In this document: one piece after another, positions 1 through 15,709 of the stretch
How positions within the stretch are numbered: position 1 is the first letter of the stretch
Layout of the letters: the number at the start of each line of letters is the position of its first letter
DNA from: Nitrospirales bacterium
Lineage (GTDB): Bacteria; Nitrospirota; Nitrospiria; Nitrospirales; UBA8639
Reading direction: 5' to 3'
Assembly (NCBI GenBank): GCA_963422365.1
Contig: OY729426.1
Coordinates: forward strand, 32,001 to 96,000
DNA length: 64,000 bases
Made by a program: the position numbers and the translations under genes
The notes under the pieces: generated by a model
The model's input: the letters and a program-made list of their open reading frames with translations, nothing else
The model's database searches: none
Told to the model about the DNA's origin: nothing

Positions 1-3000
1 GAGGCCCGTGCCCGTCACATCAATGTTACCCGTGGCCGTCACCGCGGCCAGCGACACCGCGCCACCCGTCACCGTGAGGCTCGCCACCGCGGTGGTGCCA
101 CCCACTGCCCCGGCCAGTGTGATCGTGCCGGTATCCGCATCCAGCACCAGCACCTGCCCGCCGTCGATCGTCGACGTGAACCGGATGTCGCCATCCGTGC
201 CGTCGGCGTTGGCGTCACTGTTGACCCACACGAAGTAGGCTAACGTCACCGGGCCGGTGAAGGTGATGTTGCCGTCGTCACTGCGGTACGCCCCTGCCAG
301 CGTGATGCCCGCGATACCCCTCACATCAACAGCCCCAGTCGCCGTCACCGCGGCCAGCTCCACCGCGCCACCCCTCACCGTGAGGCTCGCCACCGCGGTG
401 GTGCCACCCACCGCCCCGGCCAGCGTGATCGCGCCGGTATCCGCATCCAGCACCAGCGCATACCCGCCGTCGATCGTCGACGTGAACCGGATGTCGCCAT
501 CCGTGCCGTCGGCGTTGGCGTCACTGTTGACCGTCACGGCCCCGGCTAACGTCACCGGGCCGGTGAAGGTCACGTTGCCGTCGCTCGAGAGCACGTTTCC
601 CGCCAGCGTGATGCCCGTGCCCGTCACCGCAATGTCGCCCGTCGCCGTCACCGCGGCCAGCGCCACCGCGCCCGAGGTCGTCACCGTGAGGCTCGCCACC
701 TGGGTGGTGCCACCCACCGCCCCGGCCAGCGTGATCGCGCCGGTATCCGCGTCCAGGCTTAGCGCATACCCACCGTCGATGGTCGACGTGAACCGGATGT
801 CGCCGTCCGTGCCGTCGTAGTTGGCGTCACTGTTGACCGTCACGGCCCCGGCTAACGTCACCGGGCCGGTGAAGGTCACGTTGCCGTCGTTCGAGAGCAC
901 GTTTCCCGCCAGCGTGATGCCCGTGCCCGTCACCGCCACGGCACCCGTCGCCGTCACCGCGGCCAGCGCCACCGCGCCCGAGGTCGTCACCGTGAGGCTC
1001 GCCACCGCGGTGGTGCCACCCACCACCCCGGCCAGCGTGATCGCGCCGGTATCCGCATCCAGGCTCAACGCATACCCGCCGTCGATCGTCGACGTGAACC
1101 GGATGTCGCCGTCCGTGCCGTCGGCGTTGGCGTCACTGTTGACCGTCACGGCCCCGGCTAACGTCACCGGGCCGGTGAAGATGACGTTACCATCGTCACT
1201 GCGGTACGCCCCCGCCAGCGTGATGCCCGTGGTGCCCGTCACATCAATGTTGCCCGTCGCCGTCACCGCGGCCAGCGACACCGCGCCACCCGCCACCGTG
1301 AGGCTCGCCACCGGGGTAGTGCCACCCGCCGCCCCAGCCAGCGTGACCGCGCCGGTATCCGCGTCCAGCGTCAGCGCCTGCCCACCGTCGATCGTCGACG
1401 CAAACCGGATGTCGCCGTCCGTGCCGTCGCCGTTGGCGTCACTGTTGACCGTCACGGCCCCGGCTAACGTCACCGGGCCGGTGAAGATGACGTTGCCTTC
1501 GTCACTGCGGTACACCCCGGCCAGCGTGATGCCCGTGCCCGTCACCGCCACGGCGCCCGTCGCCGTCACCGCGGCCAGCGACACCGCGCCACCCGTCACC
1601 GTGAGGCTCGCCACCGGGGTGGTGCCACCCACCGCCCCGGCCAGCGTGATCGCGCCGGTATCCGCATCCAGCCTCAACGCATACCCACCGTCGATGGTCG
1701 ACGTAAACTCAATGTCGCCGTCCGTGCTGTCGTCGTCGGCGTCACTGTTGACCGTCACGGCCCCGGCTAACGTCACCGGGCCGGTGAAGGTGATATTGCC
1801 GTCGTCACTGCGGTACGCCCCCGCCAGCGTGATGCCCGTGGTGCCCGTCACATCAATGTTGCCCGTCGCCGTCACCTCGGCCAGCGACACCGCGCCACCC
1901 GCCACCGTGAGGCTCGTCACCTCTACCGCCCCGGCCAGCGTGATGCCCGTGCCCGTCACCTCCACGTCGCCCGTCGCCGTCACCGCGGCCAGCGACACCG
2001 CGCCACCCGCCACCGTGAGGCTCGTCACCGGGGTGGTGCCACCCACCGCCCCAGCCAATGTGATCGCGCCGGTATCCGCATCCAGGCTCAACGCATACCC
2101 CCCGTCGATGGTCGACGTGAACTCAATGTCGCCGTCCGTGCCGTCGTCGTTGGCGTCACTGTTGACCGTCACGGCCCCGGCTAACGTCACCGGGCCAGTG
2201 AAGGTGATAGTGCCGTCGTCACTGCGGTACATCCCCGCCAGCGTGATGCCCGTGGTGCCCGTCACCGCAATATCGCCCGTCGCTGTCACCGCGGCCAGCG
2301 ACACCGCGCCACCCGTCACCGTGAGGCTCGTTACCTCTACCGCCCCGGCCAGCGTGATGCCCGTGCCCGTCACCTCCATGTCGCCCGTCGCCGTCACCGC
2401 GGCCAGCGACACCGCGCCACCCGCCACCGTGAGGCTCGTCACCGGGGTAGTGTCACCCACCGCCCCGGCCAGCCGGATCGTGCCGGTATCCGCATCCAGC
2501 GTCAGCGCCTGCCCGCCATTGATCGACGACGTGAACTCAATGTCGCCGTCCGTGCCGTCGTCGTTGGCGTCACTGTTGACCGTCACGGCCCCGGCTAACG
2601 TCACCGGGCCGGTGAAGGTGATATTGCCGTCGTCACTGCGGTACGCCCCTTCCAGCGTGATGCCCGTGCCCGTCACATCAATGCTGCCCGTCGCCGTCAC
2701 CGCGGCCAGCGACACCGCGCCACCCGTCACCGTGAGGCTCACCACCGGGATGGTGCCACCCACCGCCCCGGCCAGCGTGATCTCACCGGTATCCGCATCC
2801 AGCGTCAGCGCCTGCCCGCCATTGATCGACGACGTAAACTCAATGTCGCCGTCCGTGCCGTCGTCGTCGGCGTCACTGTCCACCTGCACGGCCCCGGCTA
2901 ACGTCACCGGGCCAGTGAAGGTGATATTGCCATCGTCACTGTTGTACTGCCCTGCCAGCCGGATCGTGCTGCCCGTCACCGCCACGGCGCCCGTCGCCCT

Positions 3001-6000
3001 CACCCTGGCCAGCGACACCGCGCCACCCCTCACCGTGAGGCTCGTCACCGGGGTAGCGCCACCCACCGCCCCGGCCAGCGTGATCGCGCCGGTATCCGCG
3101 TCCAGCGTCAGCGCCTGCCCGCCTTCAATGGTCGACGTGAACCGGATGGCCCCGTCCGCACCGCTGTTGTTTTGGTCACTGTTGACCGTCACGGCCCCGG
3201 CTAACGTCACCGGGCCGTCGAAGGTGATGTTGCCGTCGTTCGAGAGCACGTCTCCTGCCAGCCTGATGCCCGCGATCCCCCTCACATCAACAGCCCCAGT
3301 CGCCGTCACCGCGGCCAGCGACACCGCGCGACCCGTCACCGTGAGGCTCGCCACCGCGGTAATGCCACCCACCGCCCCGGCCAGTGCGATCTCGCCGGTA
3401 TCCGCGTCCAGCGTCAGCGCATACCCCCCGTCGATCGTCGACGTGAACCGGACCCCGTCCGTGCTGTCCGGGGCGGCGGCGTCACTGTTGACCGTCACGG
3501 CCCCGGCTAACGTCACCGGGCCGGTGAAGGTGATATTGCCGTCGTCACTGCGGTACGCCCCCGCCAGCGTGAGGCCCGTGCCCGTCACCGCCATGTCGCC
3601 CGTCGCCGTCACCGCAGCCAGCGACACCGCGCCACCCGTCACCGTGAGGCTCACCACCGGGGTGGTGCCACCCACCGCCCCGCCCAGCGTGATCGCGCCG
3701 GTATCCGCGTCCAGCGTCAGCGCATACCCACCGTCGATCGTCGACGTGAACTCAATATCGCCGGCTGTGCCGTCGCCGTCGTCGTCACTGTTGACCGTCA
3801 CGTCCCCGGCTAAGGTCACCGGGCCGGTGAAGGTCACGTTGCCGTCGTCACTGCGGTACGCCCCGGCCAGCCTGATACCCGTGCCCGTCACATCAATGTC
3901 GCCCGTCGCCGTCACCGCGGCCAGCGACACCGCGCCACCCGCCACCGTGAGGCTCGTCACCGGGGTAGTGCCACCCACCGCCCCGGCCAGCCGGATCGCG
4001 CCGGTATCCGAGTCCAGGCCAAGCGCATACCCACCGTCGATCGTCGACGTGAACCGGATGACCCCGGCCGTGCTGTCGTCGTTGGCGTCACTGTTGACCG
4101 TCACGTCCCCGGCTAACGTCACCGGGCCGGTGAAGGTGATGTTGCCGTCGTTACTCTGGTACACACCCGCCAGGGTGATGCCTGTAGCCGTCACCGCCAC
4201 GTCGCCCATCGCCGTCACCGCGGGCAGCACCACCACCGCGCCAGAGGTCGTCACCGTGAGGCTCGCCACCGCGGTAATGCCACCCACCGCCCCGCCCAGC
4301 GTGATCGCGCCGGTATCCGCATCCAAGCTCAGCGCATGCCCGCCGTTGATCGACGACGTGAACTCAATGTCGCCGTCCGTGCCGTCGGCGTCGGCGTCAC
4401 TGTTGACCCGCACAGCCCCGGCTAACGTCACCATGAAGTAGCCGGTGAAGGTAATATTGCCGTCGTCACTCTGGTACACCCCCGCCAGCCTGATGCTCGT
4501 CCCCGTCACATCAATGTCGCCCGTCGCCGCCACCGCGGCCAGCGCCACCGTTTCCCTGGTCACCACTGTGAGGCTCGCCACCGCGGTGGTGCCACCCACC
4601 GCCCCGGCCAGCGTGATCGCGCCGGTATCCGCGTCCAGCGTCAGCGCATACCCACCGTCGATGGTCGATGTAAACTCAATGGCCCCGTCCGTGCTGTCGT
4701 CATTGGCGTCACTGTTGACCGTCACAGCCCCGGCTAACGTCACCGGGCCGGTGAAGGTGATATTGCCATCGTTCGAGAGCACGTCTCCCGCCAGCGTGAT
4801 GCCCGTCCCCGTCACCGCAATGTTGCCCGTCGCCGTCACCGCGACCAGCGACACCGCGCCACCCGCCAGCGTGAGGCTCGTCACAGGGGTAGTGCTACCC
4901 ACCGCCCCGGCCAGCGTGATCGCGCCGGTATCCGCATCCAGGCTCAGCACATACCCACCGTCGATGGTCGATGTAAACTCAATGTCGCCGTCCGTACTGT
5001 CGTCATTGGCGTCACTGTTGACCCGCACGGCCCCGGCTAACGTCACCGGGCCGGTGAAGGTAATAGTGCCGTCGCTCGAGAACACGTTTCCCGCCAGCGT
5101 GATGCCCGTGCCCGTCACCGCAATGTCGCCCGTCGCCGCCACCGCGGCCAGCGACACCGCACCACCCGTCACCGTGAGGCTCGTTACCGGGGTAGTGCCA
5201 CCCACCGCCCTGGCCAGCGTGATCGCGCCGGTATCCGCGTCCAGCGTCAGCGCATACCCACCGTCGATGGTCGACGTAAACTCAATGTCGCCGTCCGTGC
5301 TGTCGTCATTGGCGTCACTGTTGACCGTCACGGCCCCGGCTAACGTCACCGGGCCAGTGAAGGTGATGTGGCCGTCGTTCGAGAGCACGTCTCCCGCCAG
5401 CGTGATGCCCATGCCCCTCACATCAATGTTGCGCGTCGCCCTCACCGCCGCCAGCGACACCGCACCACCCCTCACCACCTTCAGGCTCGTCACCGGGGTC
5501 GTACCACCCACCGTCCCGGCCAGCGTGATCGCGCCGTCATCCGCGTCCAGGCCCAGCACATACCCGCCGTTGATGGTCGACGTGAACTCAATATCGCCGT
5601 CCGTGTCGTCGTTGTCGGCGTTACTGTCCACCCACACGAAGTTGGCTAACGTCACCGGGCCGGTGAAGGTGATGTTGCCGTCGTTCGAGAACACGTTTCC
5701 CGCCAGCGTGATGCCCGTGCCCGTCACCGCAATGTCGCCCGTCGCCGACACCGCGGGCAGCGACACCGCGCCCCGGGTCGCCACCTTCAGGCTCGTCACC
5801 GGGGTGGTGCCACCCACCGCGCCGACCAGCGTGATCGCGCCGGTATCCGCGTCCAGGCTTAGCGCATACCCGCCGTCGATGGTCGACGTGAACTCAATAT
5901 CGCCGTCCGTGCCGTCGTCGTCGGCGTCACTGTCCACCCGCACGTCCCCGGCTAACGTCACCGGGCCGGTGAAGGTGATGTCGTCGCCGTCGTCACTCTG

Positions 6001-9000
6001 GTACGCCCCCGCCAGCGTGATCGTGCCGCCCCTCACATCAATGTTGCCTATCACCGTCACCGCGGGCAGCGACACCGCGCCCCGGGTCGCCACCTTCAGG
6101 CTCGTCACCGGGGTGGTGCCACCCACCGCGCCGACCAGCGTGATCGCGCCGGTATCCGCATCCAAGCTCAGCGCATGCCCGCCGTTGATCGACGACGTGA
6201 ACTCAATGGCCCCGTCCGTGCCGTCGTTGTCGGCGTCACTGTCCACCCGCACGGCCCAGTCTAACGTCACCGGGCCGGTGAAGGTCACGTTGCCGTCATC
6301 ACTGCGGTAATTCCTGCCCAGCGTGATGCCCCTGCCCCTCACATCAATGTTGCCCGTCGCCTTCACCGAGGAGGACAGCGCCACCGCGCCACCTGTCACC
6401 GTGAGGCTCGTCACCGCGGTGGTGCCACCCACCGTCCTGTCCAGCGTGATCGCGCCGGTATCCGCATCCAGCGTCAGCGCCTGCCCGCCGTCAATGGTCG
6501 ACGTGAACCGGATGGCCCCGTCCGCACCGCTGTTGTTTTGGTCACTGTTGACCGTCACGGCCCCGGCTAACGTCACCGGGCCAGTGAAGGTGATGTTGCC
6601 GTCGTTCGAGAGCACGTTTCCTGCCAGCGTGATGCCCGTGCCGCCCTTCACCTCAATGTTGCCCGTGGCCGTCACCGCGGCCAGCGACACCGAGACACCC
6701 CTCACCGCCACGCCCCCCGTGGCCGTCACCGCGGCCAGCGACACCGAGACACCCCTCACCGTGAGGCTCGTCACCGGGGTGGTGCCACCCACCGCCCCGG
6801 CCAGTGTGATCGTGCCGTCATCCGCCTCCAGCGTCAGATCGCGCCCGCCGTCGATGGTCGACGTGAACCGGATGTTACCATCCGTGACGTCGTTGTCGGC
6901 GTCACTGTTCACCCACACGGACCAGTCTAACGTCACCGGGCCGGTGAAGGTGATAGTGCCGTCGTTACTGCGGTACACCCCTTCCAGCGTGATGCCCGTG
7001 GTGCCCGTCACATCAATGTTGCCCGTCGCCCTCACCGCGACCAGCGACACCACACCACCCCTCACCGTGAGGCTCGCCACCAGGGCGGTACTACCCACCA
7101 CCTCGTCCAGCGTGATCGCGCCGGTATCCGCGTCCAGCGTCAGCGCATACGCACCGTCGATGGTCGACGTGAACTCAATGTCGCCGGCCGTGCCGTCGGC
7201 GTCGGCGTCACTGTCCACCCGCACGGCCCCGGCTAACGTCACCGGGCCGGTAAAGGTGATGTTGCCGTCGTCACTGCGGTACGCCCCCGCCAGCGTGATG
7301 CCCGTGCCCGTCACCGCCACGGCCCCCGTCGCCGACACCGCGGCCAGCGCCACCGCGCCCGAGGTCGTCACCGTGAGGCTCGCCACCGGGGTGCCACCCA
7401 CCGCCCCGGCCAGTGTGATCGCGCCGGTATCCGCGTCCAGGCTCAGCGCATACGCACCGTTGATGGTCGACGTGAACCGGATGTTACCATCCGCACCGCT
7501 GTCGTTTTGGTCACTGTTGACCGTCACGGCCCCGGCTAACGTCACCGGGCCGGTAAAGGTGATGTTGCCGTCGTCACTGCGGTACGCCCCCGCCAGCGTG
7601 ATGCCCGTGCCCGTCACCGCAATGTCGCCCGTCGCCGTCACCGCGGCCAGCGACACCGCGCCACCCGTCACCGTGAGGCTCGCCACCGGGGTGCCACCCA
7701 CCGCCCCGGCCAGTGTGATCGCGCCGGTATCCGCGTCCAGGCTCAGCGCATACGCACCGTTGATGGTCGACGTGAACCGGATGGCCCCGGCTGTGCCGCT
7801 GTCGTTTTGGTCACTGTTGACCGTCACGGCCCCGGCTAACGTCACCGGGCCGGTAAAGGTGATGTTGCCGTCGTCACTGCGGTACGCCCCCGCCAGCGTG
7901 ATGCCCGCGCTAGCCGTCACCGCCACGGCCCCCGTCGCCGACACCTCGGGCAGCACCACCCCCGCCGAGCCCGAGGTCGTCACCGTGAGGCTCGCCACCG
8001 GGGTGCCACCCACCGCCCCGGCCAGTGTGATCGCGCCGGTATCCGCGTCCAGGCTCAGCGCATACGCACCGTTGATGGTCGACGTGAACCGGATGGCCCC
8101 GTCCGCACCGCTGTCGTTTTGGTCACTGTTGACCGTCACGGCCCCGGCTAACGTCACCGGGCCGGTAAAGGTGATGTTGCCGTCGTCACTGCGGTACGCC
8201 CCCGCCAGCGTGATGCCCGTGCCCGTCACCGCAATGTTGCCCGTCGCCGTCACCGCGGCCAGCGACACCGCGCCCGAGGTCGTCACCGTGAGGCTCGCCA
8301 CCGGGGTGCCACCCACCGCCCCGGCCAGTGTGATCGCGCCGGTATCCGCGTCCAGGCTCAGCGCATACGCACCGTTGATGGTCGACGTGAACCGGATGGC
8401 CCCGTCCGCACCGCTGTCGTTTTGGTCACTGTTGACCGTCACGGCCCCGGCTAACGTCACCGGGCCGGTAAAGGTGATGTTGCCGTCGTCACTGCGGTAC
8501 GCCCCCGCCAGCGTGATGCCCGTGCCCGTCACCGCAATGTTGCCCGTCGCCGTCACCGCGGCCAGCGACACCGCGCCCGAGGTCGTCACCGTGAGGCTCG
8601 CCACCGGGGTGCCACCCACCGCCCCGGCCAGTGTGATCGCGCCGGTATCCGCGTCCAGGCTCAGCGCATACGCACCGTTGATGGTCGACGTGAACCGGAT
8701 GTTACCATCCGCACCGCTGTCGTTTTGGTCACTGTTGACCGTCACGGCCCCGGCTAACGTCACCGGGCCGGTAAAGGTGATGTTGCCGTCGTCACTGCGG
8801 TACGCCCCCGCCAGCGTGATGCCCGTGCCCGTCACCGCAATGTCGCCCGTCGCCGTCACCGCGGCCAGCGACACCGCGCCACCCGTCACCGTGAGGCTCG
8901 CCACCGGGGTGCCACCCACCGCCCCGGCCAGTGTGATCGCGCCGGTATCCGCGTCCAGGCTCAGCGCATACGCACCGTTGATGGTCGACGTGAACCGGAT

Positions 9001-11830
9001 GGCCCCGGCTGTGCCGCTGTCGTTTTGGTCACTGTTGACCGTCACGGCCCCGGCTAACGTCACCGGGCCGGTAAAGGTGATGTTGCCGTCGTCACTGCGG
9101 TACGCCCCCGCCAGCGTGATGCCCGTGCCCGTCACCGCAATGTTGCCCGTCGCCGTCACCGCGGCCAGCGACACCGCGCCCGAGGTCGTCACCGTGAGGC
9201 TCGCCACCGGGGTACCACCCACCGCCCCGGCCAGTGTGATCGCGCCGGTATCCGCGTCCAGGCTCAGCGCATACGCACCGTTGATGGTCGACGTGAACCG
9301 GATGTTACCATCCGCACCGCTGTCGTTTTGGTCACTGTTGACCGTCACGGCCCCGGCTAACGTCACCGGGCCGGTAAAGGTGATGTTGCCGTCGTCACTG
9401 CGGTACGCCCCCGCCAGCGTGATGCCCGTGCCCGTCACCGCAATGTCGCCCGTCGCCGTCACCGCGGCCAGCGACACCGCGCCACCCGTGAGACCGTGAG
9501 GCTCGCCACCGGGGTGCCACCCACCGCCCCGGCCAGTGTGATCGCGCCGGTATCCGCGTCCAGGCTCAGCGCATACGCACCGTTGATGGTCGACGTGAAC
9601 CGGATGGCCCCGGCTGTGCCGCTGTCGTTTTGGTCACTGTTGACCGTCACGGCCCCGGCTAACGTCACCGGGCCGGTAAAGGTGATGTTGCCGTCGTCAC
9701 TGCGGTACGCCCCCGCCAGCGTGATGCCCGTGCCCGTCACCGCAATGTTGCCCGTCGCCGTCACCGCGGCCAGCGACACCGCGCCACCCGTCACCGTGAG
9801 GCTCGCCACCGGGGTACCACCCACCGCCCCGGCCAGTGTGATCGCGCCGGTATCCGCGTCCAGGCTCAGCGCATACGCACCGTTGATGGTCGACGTGAAC
9901 CGGATGTTACCATCCGCACCGCTGTCGTTTTGGTCACTGTTGACCGTCACGGCCCCGGCTAACGTCACCGGGCCGGTAAAGGTGATGTTGCCGTCGTCAC
10001 TGCGGTACGCCCCCGCCAGCGTGATGCCCGTGCCCGTCACCGCAATGTCGCCCGTCGCCGTCACCGCGGCCAGCGACACCGCGCCACCCGTCACCGTGAG
10101 GCTCGCCACCGGGGTGCCACCCACCGCCCCGGCCAGTGTGATCGCGCCGGTATCCGCGTCCAGGCTCAGCGTCTGCCCGCCGTCAATGGTCGACGTGAAC
10201 CGGATGGCCCCGGCTGTGCCGCTGTCGTTTTGGTCACTGTTGACCGTCACGGCCCCGGCTAACGTCACCGGGCCGGTAAAGGTGATGTTGCCGTCGTCAC
10301 TGCGGTACGCCCCCGCCAGCGTGATGCCCGTGCCCGTCACCGCAATGTTGCCCGTCGCCGTCACCGCGGCCAGCGACACCGCGCCACCCGTCACCGTGAG
10401 GCTCGCCACCGGGGTACCACCCACCGCCCCGGCCAGTGTGATCGCGCCGGTATCCGCGTCCAGGCTCAGCGCATACGCACCGTTGATGGTCGACGTGAAC
10501 CGGATGTTACCATCCGCACCGCTGTCGTTTTGGTCACTGTTGACCGTCACGGCCCCGGCTAACGTCACCGGGCCGGTAAAGGTGATGTTGCCGTCGTCAC
10601 TGCGGTACGCCCCCGCCAGCGTGATGCCCGTGCCCGTCACCGCAATGTCGCCCGTCGCCGTCACCGCGGCCAGCGACACCGCGCCACCCGTCACCGTGAG
10701 GCTCGCCACCGGGGTGCCACCCACCGCCCCGGCCAGTGTGATCGCGCCGGTATCCGCGTCCAGGCTCAGCGTCTGCCCGCCGTCAATGGTCGACGTGAAC
10801 CGGATGGCCCCGGCTGTGCCGCTGTCGTTTTGGTCACTGTTGACCGTCACGGCCCCGGCTAACGTCACCGGGCCGGTAAAGGTGATGTTGCCGTCGTTCG
10901 AGAGCACGTTTCCCGCCAGGGTGATGCCCGTGCCCCTCACATCAATGTTGCCCGTCGCCGCCACTGCGACCAGCGACACCGCGCCACCCAACACCGTGAG
11001 GCTCGTCACCGGGGTAGTGTCACCCACCGCCCCGTCCAGCGTGATCGCGCCGGTATCCGCGTCCAGGCTCAGCGCCTGCCCGCCGTCGATGGTCGACGTG
11101 AACTCAATGTCGCCGGCCGTGCCGTCGCCGTCGTCGTCACTACTGACGTACACTTCCCCAGCTAACGTCACCGGGCCGGTGAAGGTGATGTTACCATCGT
11201 CACTGCTGTATGCCCCTGCCAGCGTGATACCCCTAGCCGTCACCGCCACGGCCCCCGTCGCCGACACCGCGGGCAGCACCACCACCGCGCCCGAGGTTGT
11301 CACCGTGAGGCTCGCCACCGGGGTGGTGCCACCCACCTCCCCGCCCAGCGTGATCGCGCCGGTATCCGCGTCCAACTCCAGCGCCTGCCCGCCGTCGATG
11401 GTCGACGTGAACTCAATGGCCCCGTCCGTGTTGTCGTCGTCGGCGTCACTGTCCACCCGCACGTCCCAGCGTAACGTCACCGGGCCGGTGAAGGTCACGT
11501 TGCCGTCGTTCGAGAGCACGTCCCCTGCCAGCGTGATGCCCGTGCCCGTCACCGCCACGGCCCCCGTCGCCGACACCGCGACCAGCGACACCGCGCCACC
11601 CGTCACCGTGAGGCTCGTCACCTCTGTCGTCCTGACACCCACCGCCCCGTCCAGCGTGATCGCGCCGGTATCCGCGTCCAGCGTCAGCGCCTGCCCGCCG
11701 TCGATGGTCGACGTGAACTCAATGGCCCCGTCCGTGTTGTCGTCGTCGGCGTCACTGTCCACCCGCACGTCCCCGGTTAACGTCACCGGGCCGGTGAAGG
11801 TGATGTTGCCGTCGCTCGTTGCAATGTCTG
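1..11830. repeat. Intragenic tandem array of ~300-bp (~100-aa) repeats, about 38 units
   Basis: The anchor 'taacgtcaccgggcc' recurs about every 300 bp from 241 to ~11776. Consensus: ITFTGPVTLAGAVTVNSDxxDxGTDGDIxFTSTIDGGYALSLDADTGAITLAGAVGGTTPVASLTVTGGAVSLAAVTATGDIxVTGTGITLAGAYRSDDGN. Confidence 0.95.
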
Positions 11831-13868
11831 CGGCCAGCGTGATTGTGCCGCTGGAATTCACAACAAGTGATGCACTGCCGCCAATGCTCAGCGATTCGCC
11901 TACTGTGATAGCGGACGCCACAATCGAACTGCCGGCCTGGCCGGTACCGGTCGGGCCTGTGGTCGCTGTGCCGATGATGATGGACCCGGAAGTGACAAAC
12001 CTCCCTATTTCCGCATTGCTGAGATTGCCAGCCCCAGCAGAAATTGTCATCAGGACGGATTGGGACGGCGCCACATGTATGTCTCCCGTTCCGGCGTCTA
12101 TGCTACTGGCGAGGTCAATCGCGAACCCGGCGCCAATCAGCGTGACGTCGCCGTTGTTGGAGGTAATGGAACCACTGCTGCCAATCGTCAGTGTTCCGAT
12201 GCCGTCGTTATTACCTGACCTCGGCGAGTCCGCTTCAAATATAAAATTGTGTGCGCCGTTGGTGCCGGTAATGGCAGCATTGATTGTCAGATGACGCCCT
12301 GCCTGCAGGCTCAGGGTGCTGCTTGAACTACCGCTCCTGTCGATAGGAGAACTGACTGTCATGTCCCGCTGCGCTTGAAGGGTGACATCTCCATCGATGG
12401 CTTCGAATGCCACAGGCTGAATGTTATAATCGTTGCTATCGGAGCCGAAACTGATCTCGCCGTCGGCGGACACCTCATTGTTATTGGTTCCATCCCCATC
12501 GGAAATGGTGATATCCCTCGGGTCCAGGAGCAACTCGCCGGCTGAGCCGCCTGGCGCACGCAGATCGACCGCGGCTGCGGCAAATTGCAGATGACGCTTG
12601 CCCGATACTTCCGCAAAACCGCCATCGCCGGAATGGGTGCCACCGCGAGCGGAAATGCTCCCCAAAAAGCGAGTTACCCGTTCCGACCAAACGATGACTT
12701 TGCCCCCGTTGCCGGTGCCGGTGGCGTCGGCCCGGATTGTCACGTCGCCGCCAACCGTGGCGTATTCGGCGTTGCGCTCCGGTCCCTTGCCCTGGAAATT
12801 GCCGCCAATCAGGGTCGTGCCGCCGCCAGAATGCCCGGACGCATCGATCTTGGCCTGCTCAACGACGCCGACTTTCTCGCCCAGCACTTTCACGCTGCCA
12901 CCGGTCTCACCTCGCCCCTTGCCGGAAGCGTCCAGCTTGCCGGCGACCCGGACGATGCCCTCGCCATTGCCCAGCAGTTGAATGTGGCCGTTGCGCATTC
13001 CCACTGAGCGCGCTTCGACGATGCCGTCCATGTTGATGACGCGGTCAACCACGTCCTTCGCCGCACTGGCTGCCAGCCACACGGCTCCGCCGTCGGCATT
13101 GATCGTGCCGCTGTTGTCAACCAGCGCTGCCAGAGGGGCTCCATCGGGGGCCGTCAGGCGCTCGGCCACGCGGTCATCAACCCTGAGCCGGATCAAGCTG
13201 TCGCCGTGGAGATCAAACGTGAAGGCATTGCCCGAAGCCAGCGCAACACGACCGAGCCGGGCGCGAATCACCCCGCTGTTCTCGACGCCGGGTGCCACCA
13301 GCGCTACCAAGCCGCCTTCGGCTGCGGTGATCCTGCCGCGGTTGACGACCGTCCCGCCAGGATTATGGTTGATAGCAAAGTTGAAACGACCGGCCATGAA
13401 GTCTTCATTGCGGATATCGATCGTTGTCGCGACCAGGCCGGCGACGTCCACCACGGCGGTTTTGCCGAACAGGATGCCATTCGGGTTGAGCAGCATGACC
13501 CGGCCGTTGGCGGTCAGCTTCCCGAGAAGATTGGAGTACGAATCGCCCCTGACCCGGTTCAGCGTCATCGAAGAAGCGGACGGCTGCCGAAAGTGGGTAT
13601 GCTCGTCCACGTCAATCGAGAACGAACGCCAATCGATGACGGCGTTGGCGGAGCGCTGGTTGATATCAAGACGATTGGGCGTGGACTGTACGATGTCAGC
13701 CCCGCCGGCAATCACCTTGCCGTCCTTCGGCATTGCCTGCACCAGCCCGCCGGCCGTCAGCACCCCGCAAGACAGGGCCAACAGCAGTACGAGAAATGTC
13801 AATCGCCGACCAGAGATTCCATGATGGGCCTCGCTGATTCGCTCCGCAACATTAGGGAAAGCCGTCAT
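1..13868 (-). CDS. Giant filamentous haemagglutinin-family TpsA exoprotein/adhesin (signal peptide, TPS secretion domain, ~38 beta-helical repeats); apparent frameshift at ~9490; 3' end lies beyond the left edge
   Basis: ORF 9459..13868 has a signal peptide, the TPS-domain motifs 'IDWRSFSI' and 'LLNPNGILFG', then G/T/A/V/D-rich repeats. The same repeat continues in another minus frame from ~9490 to base 1 (bases 1-30 read ...GNIDVTGTGL). It lies 20 nt downstream of a TpsB gene. Confidence 0.9.
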
Positions 13869-13888: not shown

Positions 13889-15626
13889 CTAAAAGCGCGC
13901 CGTGAAGGTGAAGAATACGCGCCGCGAGTCGACATCAATCGTTCGCGAGTCAGTTTTTTTGATCAGCGGCCAGGCGATCTCAAATGACCCTGACAGGTGA
14001 TCAGTGAAATTCAAACGAACGCCACCGCCTGCCGACGCCAGCTGCGTGTTTTCATCCAGCACCAGCGCACCAGGGTCCTTCCGCCACACTCCGCCGATAT
14101 CGGAGAAGCCGTATAGCTGATACCCCTCCACCAGAGCCGAGGCGCCGAGATTGTGCCCGTAGCGCAGTTCCCCGAGAAGGCAGCCCCCCTGGTCGCCTGT
14201 CACTTCCGAGGGGTCGTACGCTCGGCCACAGCGCTCGCCCCCAATCCCGAATTCCTCCGACGCCAGCAGCTTGGACAACGCATACTGGGACGTGAAATTG
14301 GCAAACAGTGACCAGTGGCTGCTGATCCGTTGCAGGCGCGATAGAGTCAACTGGAACTTGGTGAAGTTTGTACGCCCTTTCTGGCGCGACAGTTCCGTCG
14401 AGCCGTTACTCGATGCACCCAAAATGCTCATCCCCTGGTTGAGGTCCAGCCCAAGCCGATTCACGCCGCCGAAACGGTCCACGGAATCATACAGCACGCC
14501 TACCCTGATAAAGCGCAGATGATCTCTTGACAGCCGCGCGCCGAAAATGGTGGTCTCGCTGTTGCGAGCCACAAATTCGGCATACAGCGAGACATTCTTT
14601 GCGCGCGAGCGGATGACAGGGGTGGTGCCCCCCACCCGAAAGGCGTGGGACTTGCTTTCGATGTGCAGCTTCTTCAGCGTATACCCAGGCTCCGACTCCG
14701 TGCGGGTCACTTGAAGGTACAGCTTCTCGCCGTCAGTGCCGATTTGACGCTCATGCCCGACCTCATAATACCTCAACTCATCCGGCTGCTGGGCGACGAC
14801 GACTCTTCCCGTTATTCGATCATAATAGCCGGACAGCGAGTTGACCCCCGCCCCCAGCCACGCCTGATAGGGACCGTTGAATTTGCTGCCACGGTTGTCA
14901 ACGCGCATAAAGCCATCCGCCAGAGTGTCCTTGATATCAATGATCAGTTCCGAGGCACCCGGCGTCTCCTTGGCCGCGCCTATCACTGCCTGCGACGTGA
15001 CGCCGGGCAGATCGTTGAAAAGCAGCAGATAGCGCTCCAGTACATCGATAGTCAGCGGACGTGCACTCTTGATCTTATTGGCGTAGGCATCGAGTAGCAA
15101 ACGCCGGCCACCATGTACCTCGCCTTCAATCCGTACCGCATTGATGTACCCTTCCACAACCCGGATCCGAACGACCCCCTCGGTAATCGTCTGCGGCGGC
15201 AACAGCGCCCGTGACAGGACATAGCCGTCGTTTCGGTACTTGGCCGTGATCGCCTCGGCAATATCGAACACGGAAGCGAGCGAAATTTCCTGGCCAAGCT
15301 GCTCTTCGTACAGAGATACTAACTCTGCTTCTGAATAAACAGTCGAGCCTTCCACAACCACCTCTGTCAGATCTACAGTGATCTCTCCCTCTTCCTCTGC
15401 CGATCTCCTGCGCTCGGCCTCGGGGATTAAGAACTCGGGAGTCGACCTTGGCACCGCAGGCATCTGCAAGTACTGCTCGATCTGACCGGGGGCTGTTTTA
15501 GGGGGGGGGGGGGGGGGGGGATTGTGCCTTCACTTTGCCTGCCGGAGATATCACGGCACAAAGCGCAACAGCGAAAAACGTAGACAGCCAGATGTAGAAA
15601 CGATGGGAGAGAACTAGAAAACCCAT
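13889..15626 (-). CDS. ShlB/FhaC/HecB family TpsB outer-membrane secretion/activation protein; N-terminus out of frame at a poly-C tract
   Basis: ORF 13889..15469 has POTRA motifs (YRNDGYVLSRALLPPQ; LLFNDLPGV), 'DNRGS', a VRGY-like 'GRAY' loop and C-terminal Phe. ATG 15626 encodes a signal peptide (MGFLVLSHRFYIWLSTFFAVALCAVISPAGKVKAQ) that joins this ORF if the tract has 19 C instead of 20. Confidence 0.9.
15501..15520. repeat. Homopolymer G20 (C20 on the coding strand) inside the 5' end of tpsB
   Basis: Directly visible; the longest homopolymer in the window. Confidence 0.95.
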
Positions 15627-15679
15627 AAGATCTTGACGGACACGTGTCGTACGACTACTCAATCAGATAATTATAAAAA

Positions 15680-15709
15680 AATATAAACGAAAAAGGAATG
15701 AATAGTCAA
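15680..15709 (-). promoter_or_regulatory. Putative sigma70 promoter for tpsB-tpsA
   Basis: TTGACT-18 nt-TATATT on the minus strand in an AT-rich patch, ~55 nt upstream of ATG 15626. Confidence 0.5.

Follow-up and report, generated by a model that had tools for sequence, protein, structure and literature searches.

Phase variation that arises from slipped-strand mispairing at simple sequence repeats (SSRs) is a classic, textbook class of mechanism. Among surface adhesins of the TpsA type, HMW1/2 of Haemophilus influenzae are said to be controlled through promoter repeats and reportedly undergo phase-variable glycosylation as well, and fhaB of Bordetella pertussis is reportedly subject to a homopolymer frameshift. 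The locus described here resembles these systems in that a repeat would alter the surface display of a TpsA adhesin, but their repeats are said to work through the passenger or its promoter, or else through a modifying enzyme, whereas here the repeat lies in a duplicated transporter gene. Surface and glycan genes in both Neisseria meningitidis and Campylobacter jejuni contain intragenic G/C tracts of variable length that are predicted to toggle the frame, according to the main texts of the studies concerned (PMC5084427; PMC4202330; reviewed in PMC11868660). In the main text of one of these, G/C tracts are the commonest strong candidates and those of at least 8 are usually variable (PMC5084427), and the main text of the review puts repeat mutation rates at 100–10,000 times basal (PMC11868660). 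As in these two species, a whole-genome repertoire of G/C contingency loci is found here; it differs in that the tracts are longer (13–53) and nearly always C on the coding strand, in its Nitrospirales host, and in that a TpsB transporter is the gene switched. The main text of PMC5084427 contains no match for "tpsB" or "two-partner", that of PMC5422565 contains none for "phase vari", and that of PMC11812461, on Ca. Nitrosymbion, does not mention phase variation. No report of a tract-switched tpsB, or of phase variation in Nitrospirota or sponge symbionts, was found in searches of largely open-access literature or in the main texts covered, PMC4202330, PMC6211672, PMC11656744 and PMC3711429 among them. 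The preliminary description of this DNA, made from sequence alone, likewise knew of no such switch described in Nitrospirota.

The locus lies in a 64-kb window, the whole stretch of DNA that was analysed, within a genome assembled as one contig (2.50 Mb, 53.4% GC, no N). This contig ends in an untrimmed terminal overlap of 58.3 kb (G000:C1:1–58333 and 2437343–2495695), within which copy counts are doubled; the last 10 kb of the second overlap copy carries 36 single-base indels relative to the first. The features of the locus are collected in Table 1. Both PF08479 and PF03865 score above the Pfam cut-off in tpsB copy B, the TpsB profile matches CdiB (6wim, both POTRA regions) and FhaC (4qky, over 47–538), and identity to the closest homolog, P0002, is 68%. 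The system is built like FhaC, CdiB and ShlB (4qky, 6wim; PMC5422565, main text), with a POTRA domain and ShlB barrel, tpsB–tpsA gene order, and a TpsA with a signal peptide, a TPS domain and long imperfect repeats. The tpsA gene starts 21 nt downstream of tpsB, and its TPS domain is matched by PF05860 (E 4.5e-35) and also by TIGR01901. In copy A, tpsA is open over 4658 residues, with repeats of about 100 aa rich in G, T, A, V and D. The signal peptide, TPS domain and repeat build suggest an adhesin role for TpsA. Neither tpsA showed a toxin domain or VENN-type Pfam match in a Pfam scan, features that a CdiBAI system would combine with an immunity gene, and the 238-codon ORF downstream of tpsA has no Pfam match; the locus is not assigned to CDI. 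Each tpsA is followed by such a frame of about 238 codons (L001:4558–5271, L002:4503–5216), with a hydrophobic N terminus and look-alikes in unnamed clusters at 0.96–0.97. In tpsA copy B the frame is broken near 9490 in the contig-overlap copy described here, but at a 7-base insertion near 2480 in the other. Because the break is not reproduced, it probably reflects misassembly or a variant of the repeat array.

Table 1. Features of the tpsB–tpsA locus (copy B, window coordinates) and genes holding the long poly-C tracts of the genome; X1–X3 are sequencing runs.
Feature	Position	Strand	Remarks
tpsB copy B (ShlB/FhaC family transporter)	13889..15626	-	578 aa at 19 C
ATG and predicted Sec signal peptide	15525..15626	-	34 aa, V-K-A end before Q; sequence inspection; hydrophobic 10-mer 3.0
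Poly-C tract	15501..15520	-	C20 in assembly; 19 in X2/X3; 19, 20 and longer in X1; starts at codon 36
Premature TAA reached at 20 C	15498..15500	-	product 42 aa
POTRA domain PF08479	15149..15373	-	Pfam POTRA_2, E 1e-21
ShlB/FhaC barrel region PF03865	14015..14920	-	Pfam ShlB, E 3e-21
Sigma70-like promoter match TTGACT-18-TATATT	15680..15709	-	upstream of tpsB copy B; consensus match
tpsA copy B	1..13868	-	signal peptide, TPS domain (~12960-13700), ~100-aa G/T/A/V/D-rich repeats; continues beyond window start
Long tracts: two tpsB genes			
Long tracts: three large FN3/Ig secreted-protein paralogs			C28, C19-T-C12, C17-T-C10
Long tract: family-2 glycosyltransferase (GT2)			C15
Long tract: UbiA-family membrane protein			C22
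Long tract: YidC-sulfatase fusion			C16

The G20 run on the + strand, which is C20 on the coding strand, is the sole homopolymer of more than 8 bases anywhere in the window. Read from ATG 15626 with 20 C, the frame runs MGFLVLSHRFYIWLSTFFAVALCAVISPAGKVKAQ-S-P6 and then meets TAA. It is a simple repeat with a unit that is not a multiple of three, placed early in the tpsB coding sequence, so that its length sets the frame. By frame arithmetic the in-frame lengths are 13, 16, 19, 22 and so on, the proline count over in-frame lengths runs from 6 to 13, and 19 C gives the full 578-aa TpsB. This reading of the frames confirms the preliminary description, which had placed a C20 frameshift of tpsB right after the signal peptide and had given 578 aa for the 19-C product. 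The called ORF, which starts at TTG 15469 (526 aa), begins downstream of the signal peptide; it and the database protein P0001 (524 aa) both lack the signal-peptide part, and possible restarts at 15469 or 15463 carry no export signal. Consensus matching gave two sigma70-like sites against 0.4 expected, one of them the match upstream of tpsB copy B (Table 1).

Homologs support the upstream start and place the tract in a linker. A GQ(I/L)E-type motif is present in 41 of the 46 close homologs examined, and in 35 of these 41 it is preceded by a hydrophobic segment, usually ending in AQ. This layout confirms ATG 15626 as the start, and with it the earlier statement that the 15469 ORF lacks a signal peptide; the cleavage site was placed from the sequence and from the same homolog layout. 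The homolog linker at the site of the tract is Pro-rich, is 9–27 aa long and precedes the N-terminal helix, and in P0002 it has 11 residues between AQ and GQ, equal to the 19-C allele. No C/G run of more than 8 was found near the site in any of 75 scorable homolog loci (80 metagenome loci were taken, 75 with enough upstream DNA), from which it follows that the tract is not a trait of the family; it likely arose in this lineage, within the Pro-rich linker. At this linker site the homolog P0037 carries seven prolines where its relative P0040 has SPPP, which may represent a tract that arose independently in a different lineage. Searching genome contigs for tpsB turned up no relative; 24 congeners yielded no TpsB protein, and 37 other genomes of the genus no PF03865. 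The 14 control genomes were likewise negative for PF03865, leaving this genome as the sole positive. One cluster of close homologs is named Gammaproteobacteria, which, together with the failure to find the TpsB family in the 37 genus genomes, makes horizontal acquisition of the TPS locus likely. The preliminary description had proposed to look in homologous tpsB genes of related genomes for the same tract at other lengths. In the searches above tpsB was not found in related genomes, and all 75 scorable homolog loci were free of a run above 8; paralogous tracts within this genome differ in length.

These paralogs result from a tandem duplication in which tpsB-tpsA-orf is present twice, 21.6 kb apart. 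Copies A and B encode mature TpsB proteins that are identical over the 534 residues compared and TpsA proteins that agree in all of their first 330 residues, and over about 3.75 kb (15611 to 11858, tract excluded) the copies differ by one substitution; further upstream, differences between A and B begin at 15612, 92 bases from the tract. Copy B has 20 C in its tract, whereas the copy-A tract is 41 C long (next to one A fewer in the flank) in one overlap copy and 38 C long in the other. A difference of this size between near-identical paralogs cannot be accounted for by a one-base read error, and it is the strongest sign that the tract is hypermutable. Both tpsB copies are out of frame in the assembly. 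The preliminary description had envisaged a single gate on export of the whole TpsA, a view not supported in that form, given the second tpsB, which has an identical mature protein and its own tract; the choice between attachment and dispersal that it also proposed is a hypothetical outcome. Given the identical mature TpsB and the shared first 330 residues of TpsA, either transporter would likely export either giant protein. A second tract, C11 on the coding strand (L002:4094–4104; G000:C1:26093–26103), was located upstream of tpsB copy A, with TTGACA and TAAACT on its two sides at a 22-base spacing that, with the tract at its present length, is too long for sigma70; it is possibly a promoter-type switch. 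The depths of the upstream branches of copies A and B (window 15582–15627) are 62.7 and 133.2 in sequencing run X1 and 34.6 and 71.5 in X2, and are similar in X3 and X5, a weak hint of a mixture of one-copy and two-copy chromosomes, contig depth being no copy number.

Runs of this kind are not expected by chance. Extrapolating the decay of G/C run lengths in the genome, with the duplicated contig end removed, gives 0.012 expected runs of at least 13, against 9 observed, and about 1e-6 expected runs of at least 19; there is no A/T run of more than 9. An origin of the run in sequencing or assembly, as a two-colour dark-cycle G tail, a gap-fill or an inflated homopolymer, might be suggested by the raw Illumina reads and the many contigs of run X5 that match the tract and prove to be unrelated poly-G sequence. 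We give this origin practically no credence. Single contigs of X2 and X3 with both unique flanks bridge the tract, which excludes a dark-cycle tail; the genome contains no N and G20 is present in both terminal-overlap copies, which excludes gap-fill; inflation is not seen in A/T runs, four congeners assembled as single contigs are free of such tracts, and placement is gene specific. An artefact is thus refuted as to the existence of the tract, the exact count being a separate matter. Mixed proline codons, which like the artefacts just discussed had been named at the outset as what would speak against a switch, are likewise rejected, the tract consisting of pure CCC codons.

The length of the tract was followed in 8 of 17 listed sequencing runs, three of which (X1–X3) come from one study with samples S1–S3, and one of the datasets may be the source of the assembly; the listed runs include no RNA dataset, which has no bearing on expression. 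Alleles were resolved in assembled contigs only, where rare alleles are dropped and contig cleaning may remove others. In X2 (S2) and X3 (S3) a single 3.8-kb contig spans the tract and both flanks with G19, in frame, at depths of 128.6 and 8.3, respectively. In X1 (S1) separate contig paths carry G19 at a depth of 48.8 and G20 at 39, a mix that could be read error, as the platform of X1–X3 is not on record; 31-mers common to alleles of at least 20 stand at 70, leaving by subtraction about 31 for longer alleles. Contigs of X5 end at the tract, one side retaining at least 18 G; neither X6 nor X7 covers it (X7 ends at 15498), and raw reads of X10 and X11, sampled at about 1 in 100, gave only unrelated poly-G matches. 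The upstream branch of copy A at 15627 is present in X1, X2, X3 and X5, and in X2 and X3 the branches of both copies join the single G19 contig, meaning either that both copies have 19 or that a longer path was cleaned away. The description of the gene as currently OFF therefore holds for this assembly only, since, of the three samples in which the tract is resolved, two have G19 as the bridging allele and the third has it as its deeper path. Hypermutability, the other part of that proposal, is upheld by the paralog lengths (20 against 38/41), by the G19, G20 and longer alleles among samples, and by the enrichment at 5' ends of surface genes described below.

The same sample data raise the alternative that the tract is real but fixed at 19 C as a poly-proline linker, with the gene always ON and the 20 of the assembly a +1 consensus error. 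Long-read consensus is often off by one base in long homopolymers, and the 36 indels over the final 10 kb of the contig's duplicated end fit such error; X2 and X3 bridge the tract with G19 alone, the G19 path of X1 is the deeper of its two, the 19-C linker has the length of that in the closest homolog, and homolog linkers are Pro-rich. We nevertheless consider a fixed tract unlikely, for it leaves unexplained the 38 or 41 C of paralog A and the words longer than 20 in X1, the pure CCC codons where homologs have no run above 8, and the pattern across the genome and the genus, and it must also contend with the 20 found in both overlap copies for copy B. A real, length-variable tract in codons 36–42 of tpsB that acts as a slipped-strand phase-variation switch is the reading that we hold with good confidence. 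We observe its position and frame effects, lengths that differ between paralogs as well as between samples, and a 19-C allele that is in frame and has the linker length of the closest homolog.

The tpsB tracts are not isolated in this genome. All eight tracts of at least 15 are C on the coding strand and lie in envelope-related genes (Table 1), seven of them within the first ~40 codons; three are in frame and five out of frame. A mutator background was considered and rejected, as the MutS and MutL mismatch-repair frames are open. Several shorter or otherwise imperfect cases accompany these tracts. Two FN3/Ig paralogs with out-of-frame 5' tracts (L003 and L010; G000:C1:891249 and 1777124) have further frame breaks downstream, one of them at a C9 run. 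An MFS transporter gene has an in-frame C13 mid-gene (L007:2952–2964; G000:C1:1428451), with a stop 79 codons on, short of the family length. A C10 run lies directly ahead of a TraT-family frame (L014:3660–3669; G000:C1:2070659), the two nearest upstream ATGs of which read through into stops, and in G034, which belongs to another family, a TraT-containing frame has a C13 run ahead of it (L196:2056). Orthologs of the UbiA-family gene that carries C22 have 6–8 C right after the ATG (L283–L285; G023, G052 and G048), and such short C-rich starts are likely the seed of the long tract.

Tracts of at least 13 are widespread in the genus, numbering 161 in 18 of 24 congeners, with up to 46, 27, 19, 17 and 13 per genome; none was found in the other 6 of the 24, and outside the genus 5 were found in 3 of 16 genomes of other families of the order. 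Four single-contig congeners have no tract at all. Of the congener tracts 157 were fetched, 5 at contig ends or N gaps were set aside and 152 were scored by a crude open-frame rule, under which a tract counts as 5' when it lies at the 5' end of a frame of at least 250 codons. This rule places 115 of 152 (76%) at the 5' end; in 89 of the 152 (59%) a hydrophobic segment follows as well. The background, taken from one genome (this one), gave 75 of 300 random positions (25%) at 5' ends, 22 of the 300 also with a hydrophobic segment, and 69 of 250 6-base runs, 18 of the 250 also with such a segment. Coding-strand C accounts for 96 of the 115 5'-end tracts, compared with 25 of the 75 random positions. 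Kin and paralogs are not independent, and counts are given without a P value. Most of 86 congener tract frames had no Pfam match in their first 400 residues; the matches obtained behind tracts include He_PIG, LRR, Calx-beta, cadherin, glycosyltransferase and the type I restriction specificity subunit. Near-identical paralogs inside one congener differ in tract length (13/51/17, 21/23 and 16/13), and many congener tracts are located upstream of the apparent ATG.

Such counts bear on the possibility that the tracts are unselected hotspots, which expand by drift in a host-restricted lineage and persist where genes are dispensable, as in early pseudogene decay. The TPS locus is accessory, none having been found in 37 other genus genomes, tpsA copy B and several FN3/Ig paralogs have further frame breaks, and five of the eight long tracts are out of frame, all of which would suit decay. 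Drift, however, would not concentrate tracts at 5' ends (76% against 25%) or on one strand (96/115 against 25/75), and it accords poorly with the lack of any A/T run above 9, with the intact frames of mature tpsB and of tpsA copy A (4658 aa), and with a tpsA-B break that differs between the overlap copies. Unselected expansion is, on this balance, quite improbable. The tpsB tract is instead likely one of a genus-wide set of poly-C tracts on surface-protein and envelope-modifying genes that serves bet-hedging at the interface with host, phage or neighbours.

Under the switch model favoured here, polymerase slippage would add or remove one C at a time. At 16, 19 or 22 C the signal peptide would be in frame with the transporter, the extra prolines presumably being tolerated in the linker before the N-terminal helix; at other lengths translation would stop after about 42 residues, that copy would give no exportable TpsB, and TpsA would be unable to use its transporter. 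Export would then cease only when both tpsB copies are out of frame, unless the frameshift exerts polarity on the adjacent tpsA. We infer in this model that slippage is the cause, that switching is reversible, that out-of-frame cells lose the protein, that added prolines are tolerated and that cross-export occurs. The tract might alternatively act as a graded dial, the level of export being set by +1 slippage of ribosomes on CCC-C, by transcript slippage, by pausing at poly-proline or through polarity on tpsA. Ribosomes are slowed by poly-proline, and CCC-C runs are known as +1 frameshift sites; the 20-C allele is a single base away from frame, the proline count varies over in-frame lengths, and the location of many congener tracts upstream of the apparent ATG also counts in favour. 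G/C runs, on the other hand, are poorer sites of transcript slippage than A/T runs. As a replacement for the switch a dial seems very improbable to us; it is compatible with the switch as a second layer.

A sponge habitat and assignment to Ca. Nitrosymbion (GTDB bin75), a genus of sponge symbionts, are suggested in part by the main text of PMC11812461, which gives a mean of 2.36 Mb and 56.9% GC for Ca. Nitrosymbion; the present genome, at 2.50 Mb and 53.4% GC, lies below that mean GC. Phase variation has been studied almost wholly in vertebrate pathogens and commensals, where antibodies and phages select. If nitrifiers of sponges, which have no adaptive immunity, hold a large repertoire, phage, phagocytosis or transmission bottlenecks would be indicated as the selective force. 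Beyond the classic mechanism, this locus contributes an exporter as the target, a gate present in duplicate, alleles of other samples that are in frame, and a count at the level of the genus. A bolder proposal, to which we give somewhat less than an even chance, is that sponge-type Nitrospirales carry poly-C phasomes of pathogen scale (up to 46 loci per genome) that randomise the cell surface in the host, and that in this species a recently acquired, tandemly duplicated two-partner system has brought two interchangeable exporters under the switch, so that the display of surface fibres of 4,700–6,200 residues is subject to a two-input OR gate, to which copy-number change may be added. Histograms of tract length across adults, larvae and tissues would offer a cheap, countable readout of the surface proteins for which selection favours ON or OFF in an uncultured symbiont.

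Tracts of this kind break fragmented assemblies and cause starts to be mis-called, as in P0001 without its signal peptide, so that tract genes are likely undercounted or mistaken for pseudogenes. Long tracts stand at contig ends or N gaps in fragmented congener assemblies (L135, L136, L154, L156 and L157), and in such genomes these loci are likely undercounted. A TA dinucleotide directly precedes 35 of 84 congener poly-C tracts (loci L118–L193). In one congener (G005) tracts of 29, 45 and 38 lie in or adjoin type I restriction-modification genes (L182:2097, L343:2068 and L345:2076); the first of these genes has a PF01420 match, the other two may be methyltransferase subunits, and the three tracts are candidates for switchable methylation.
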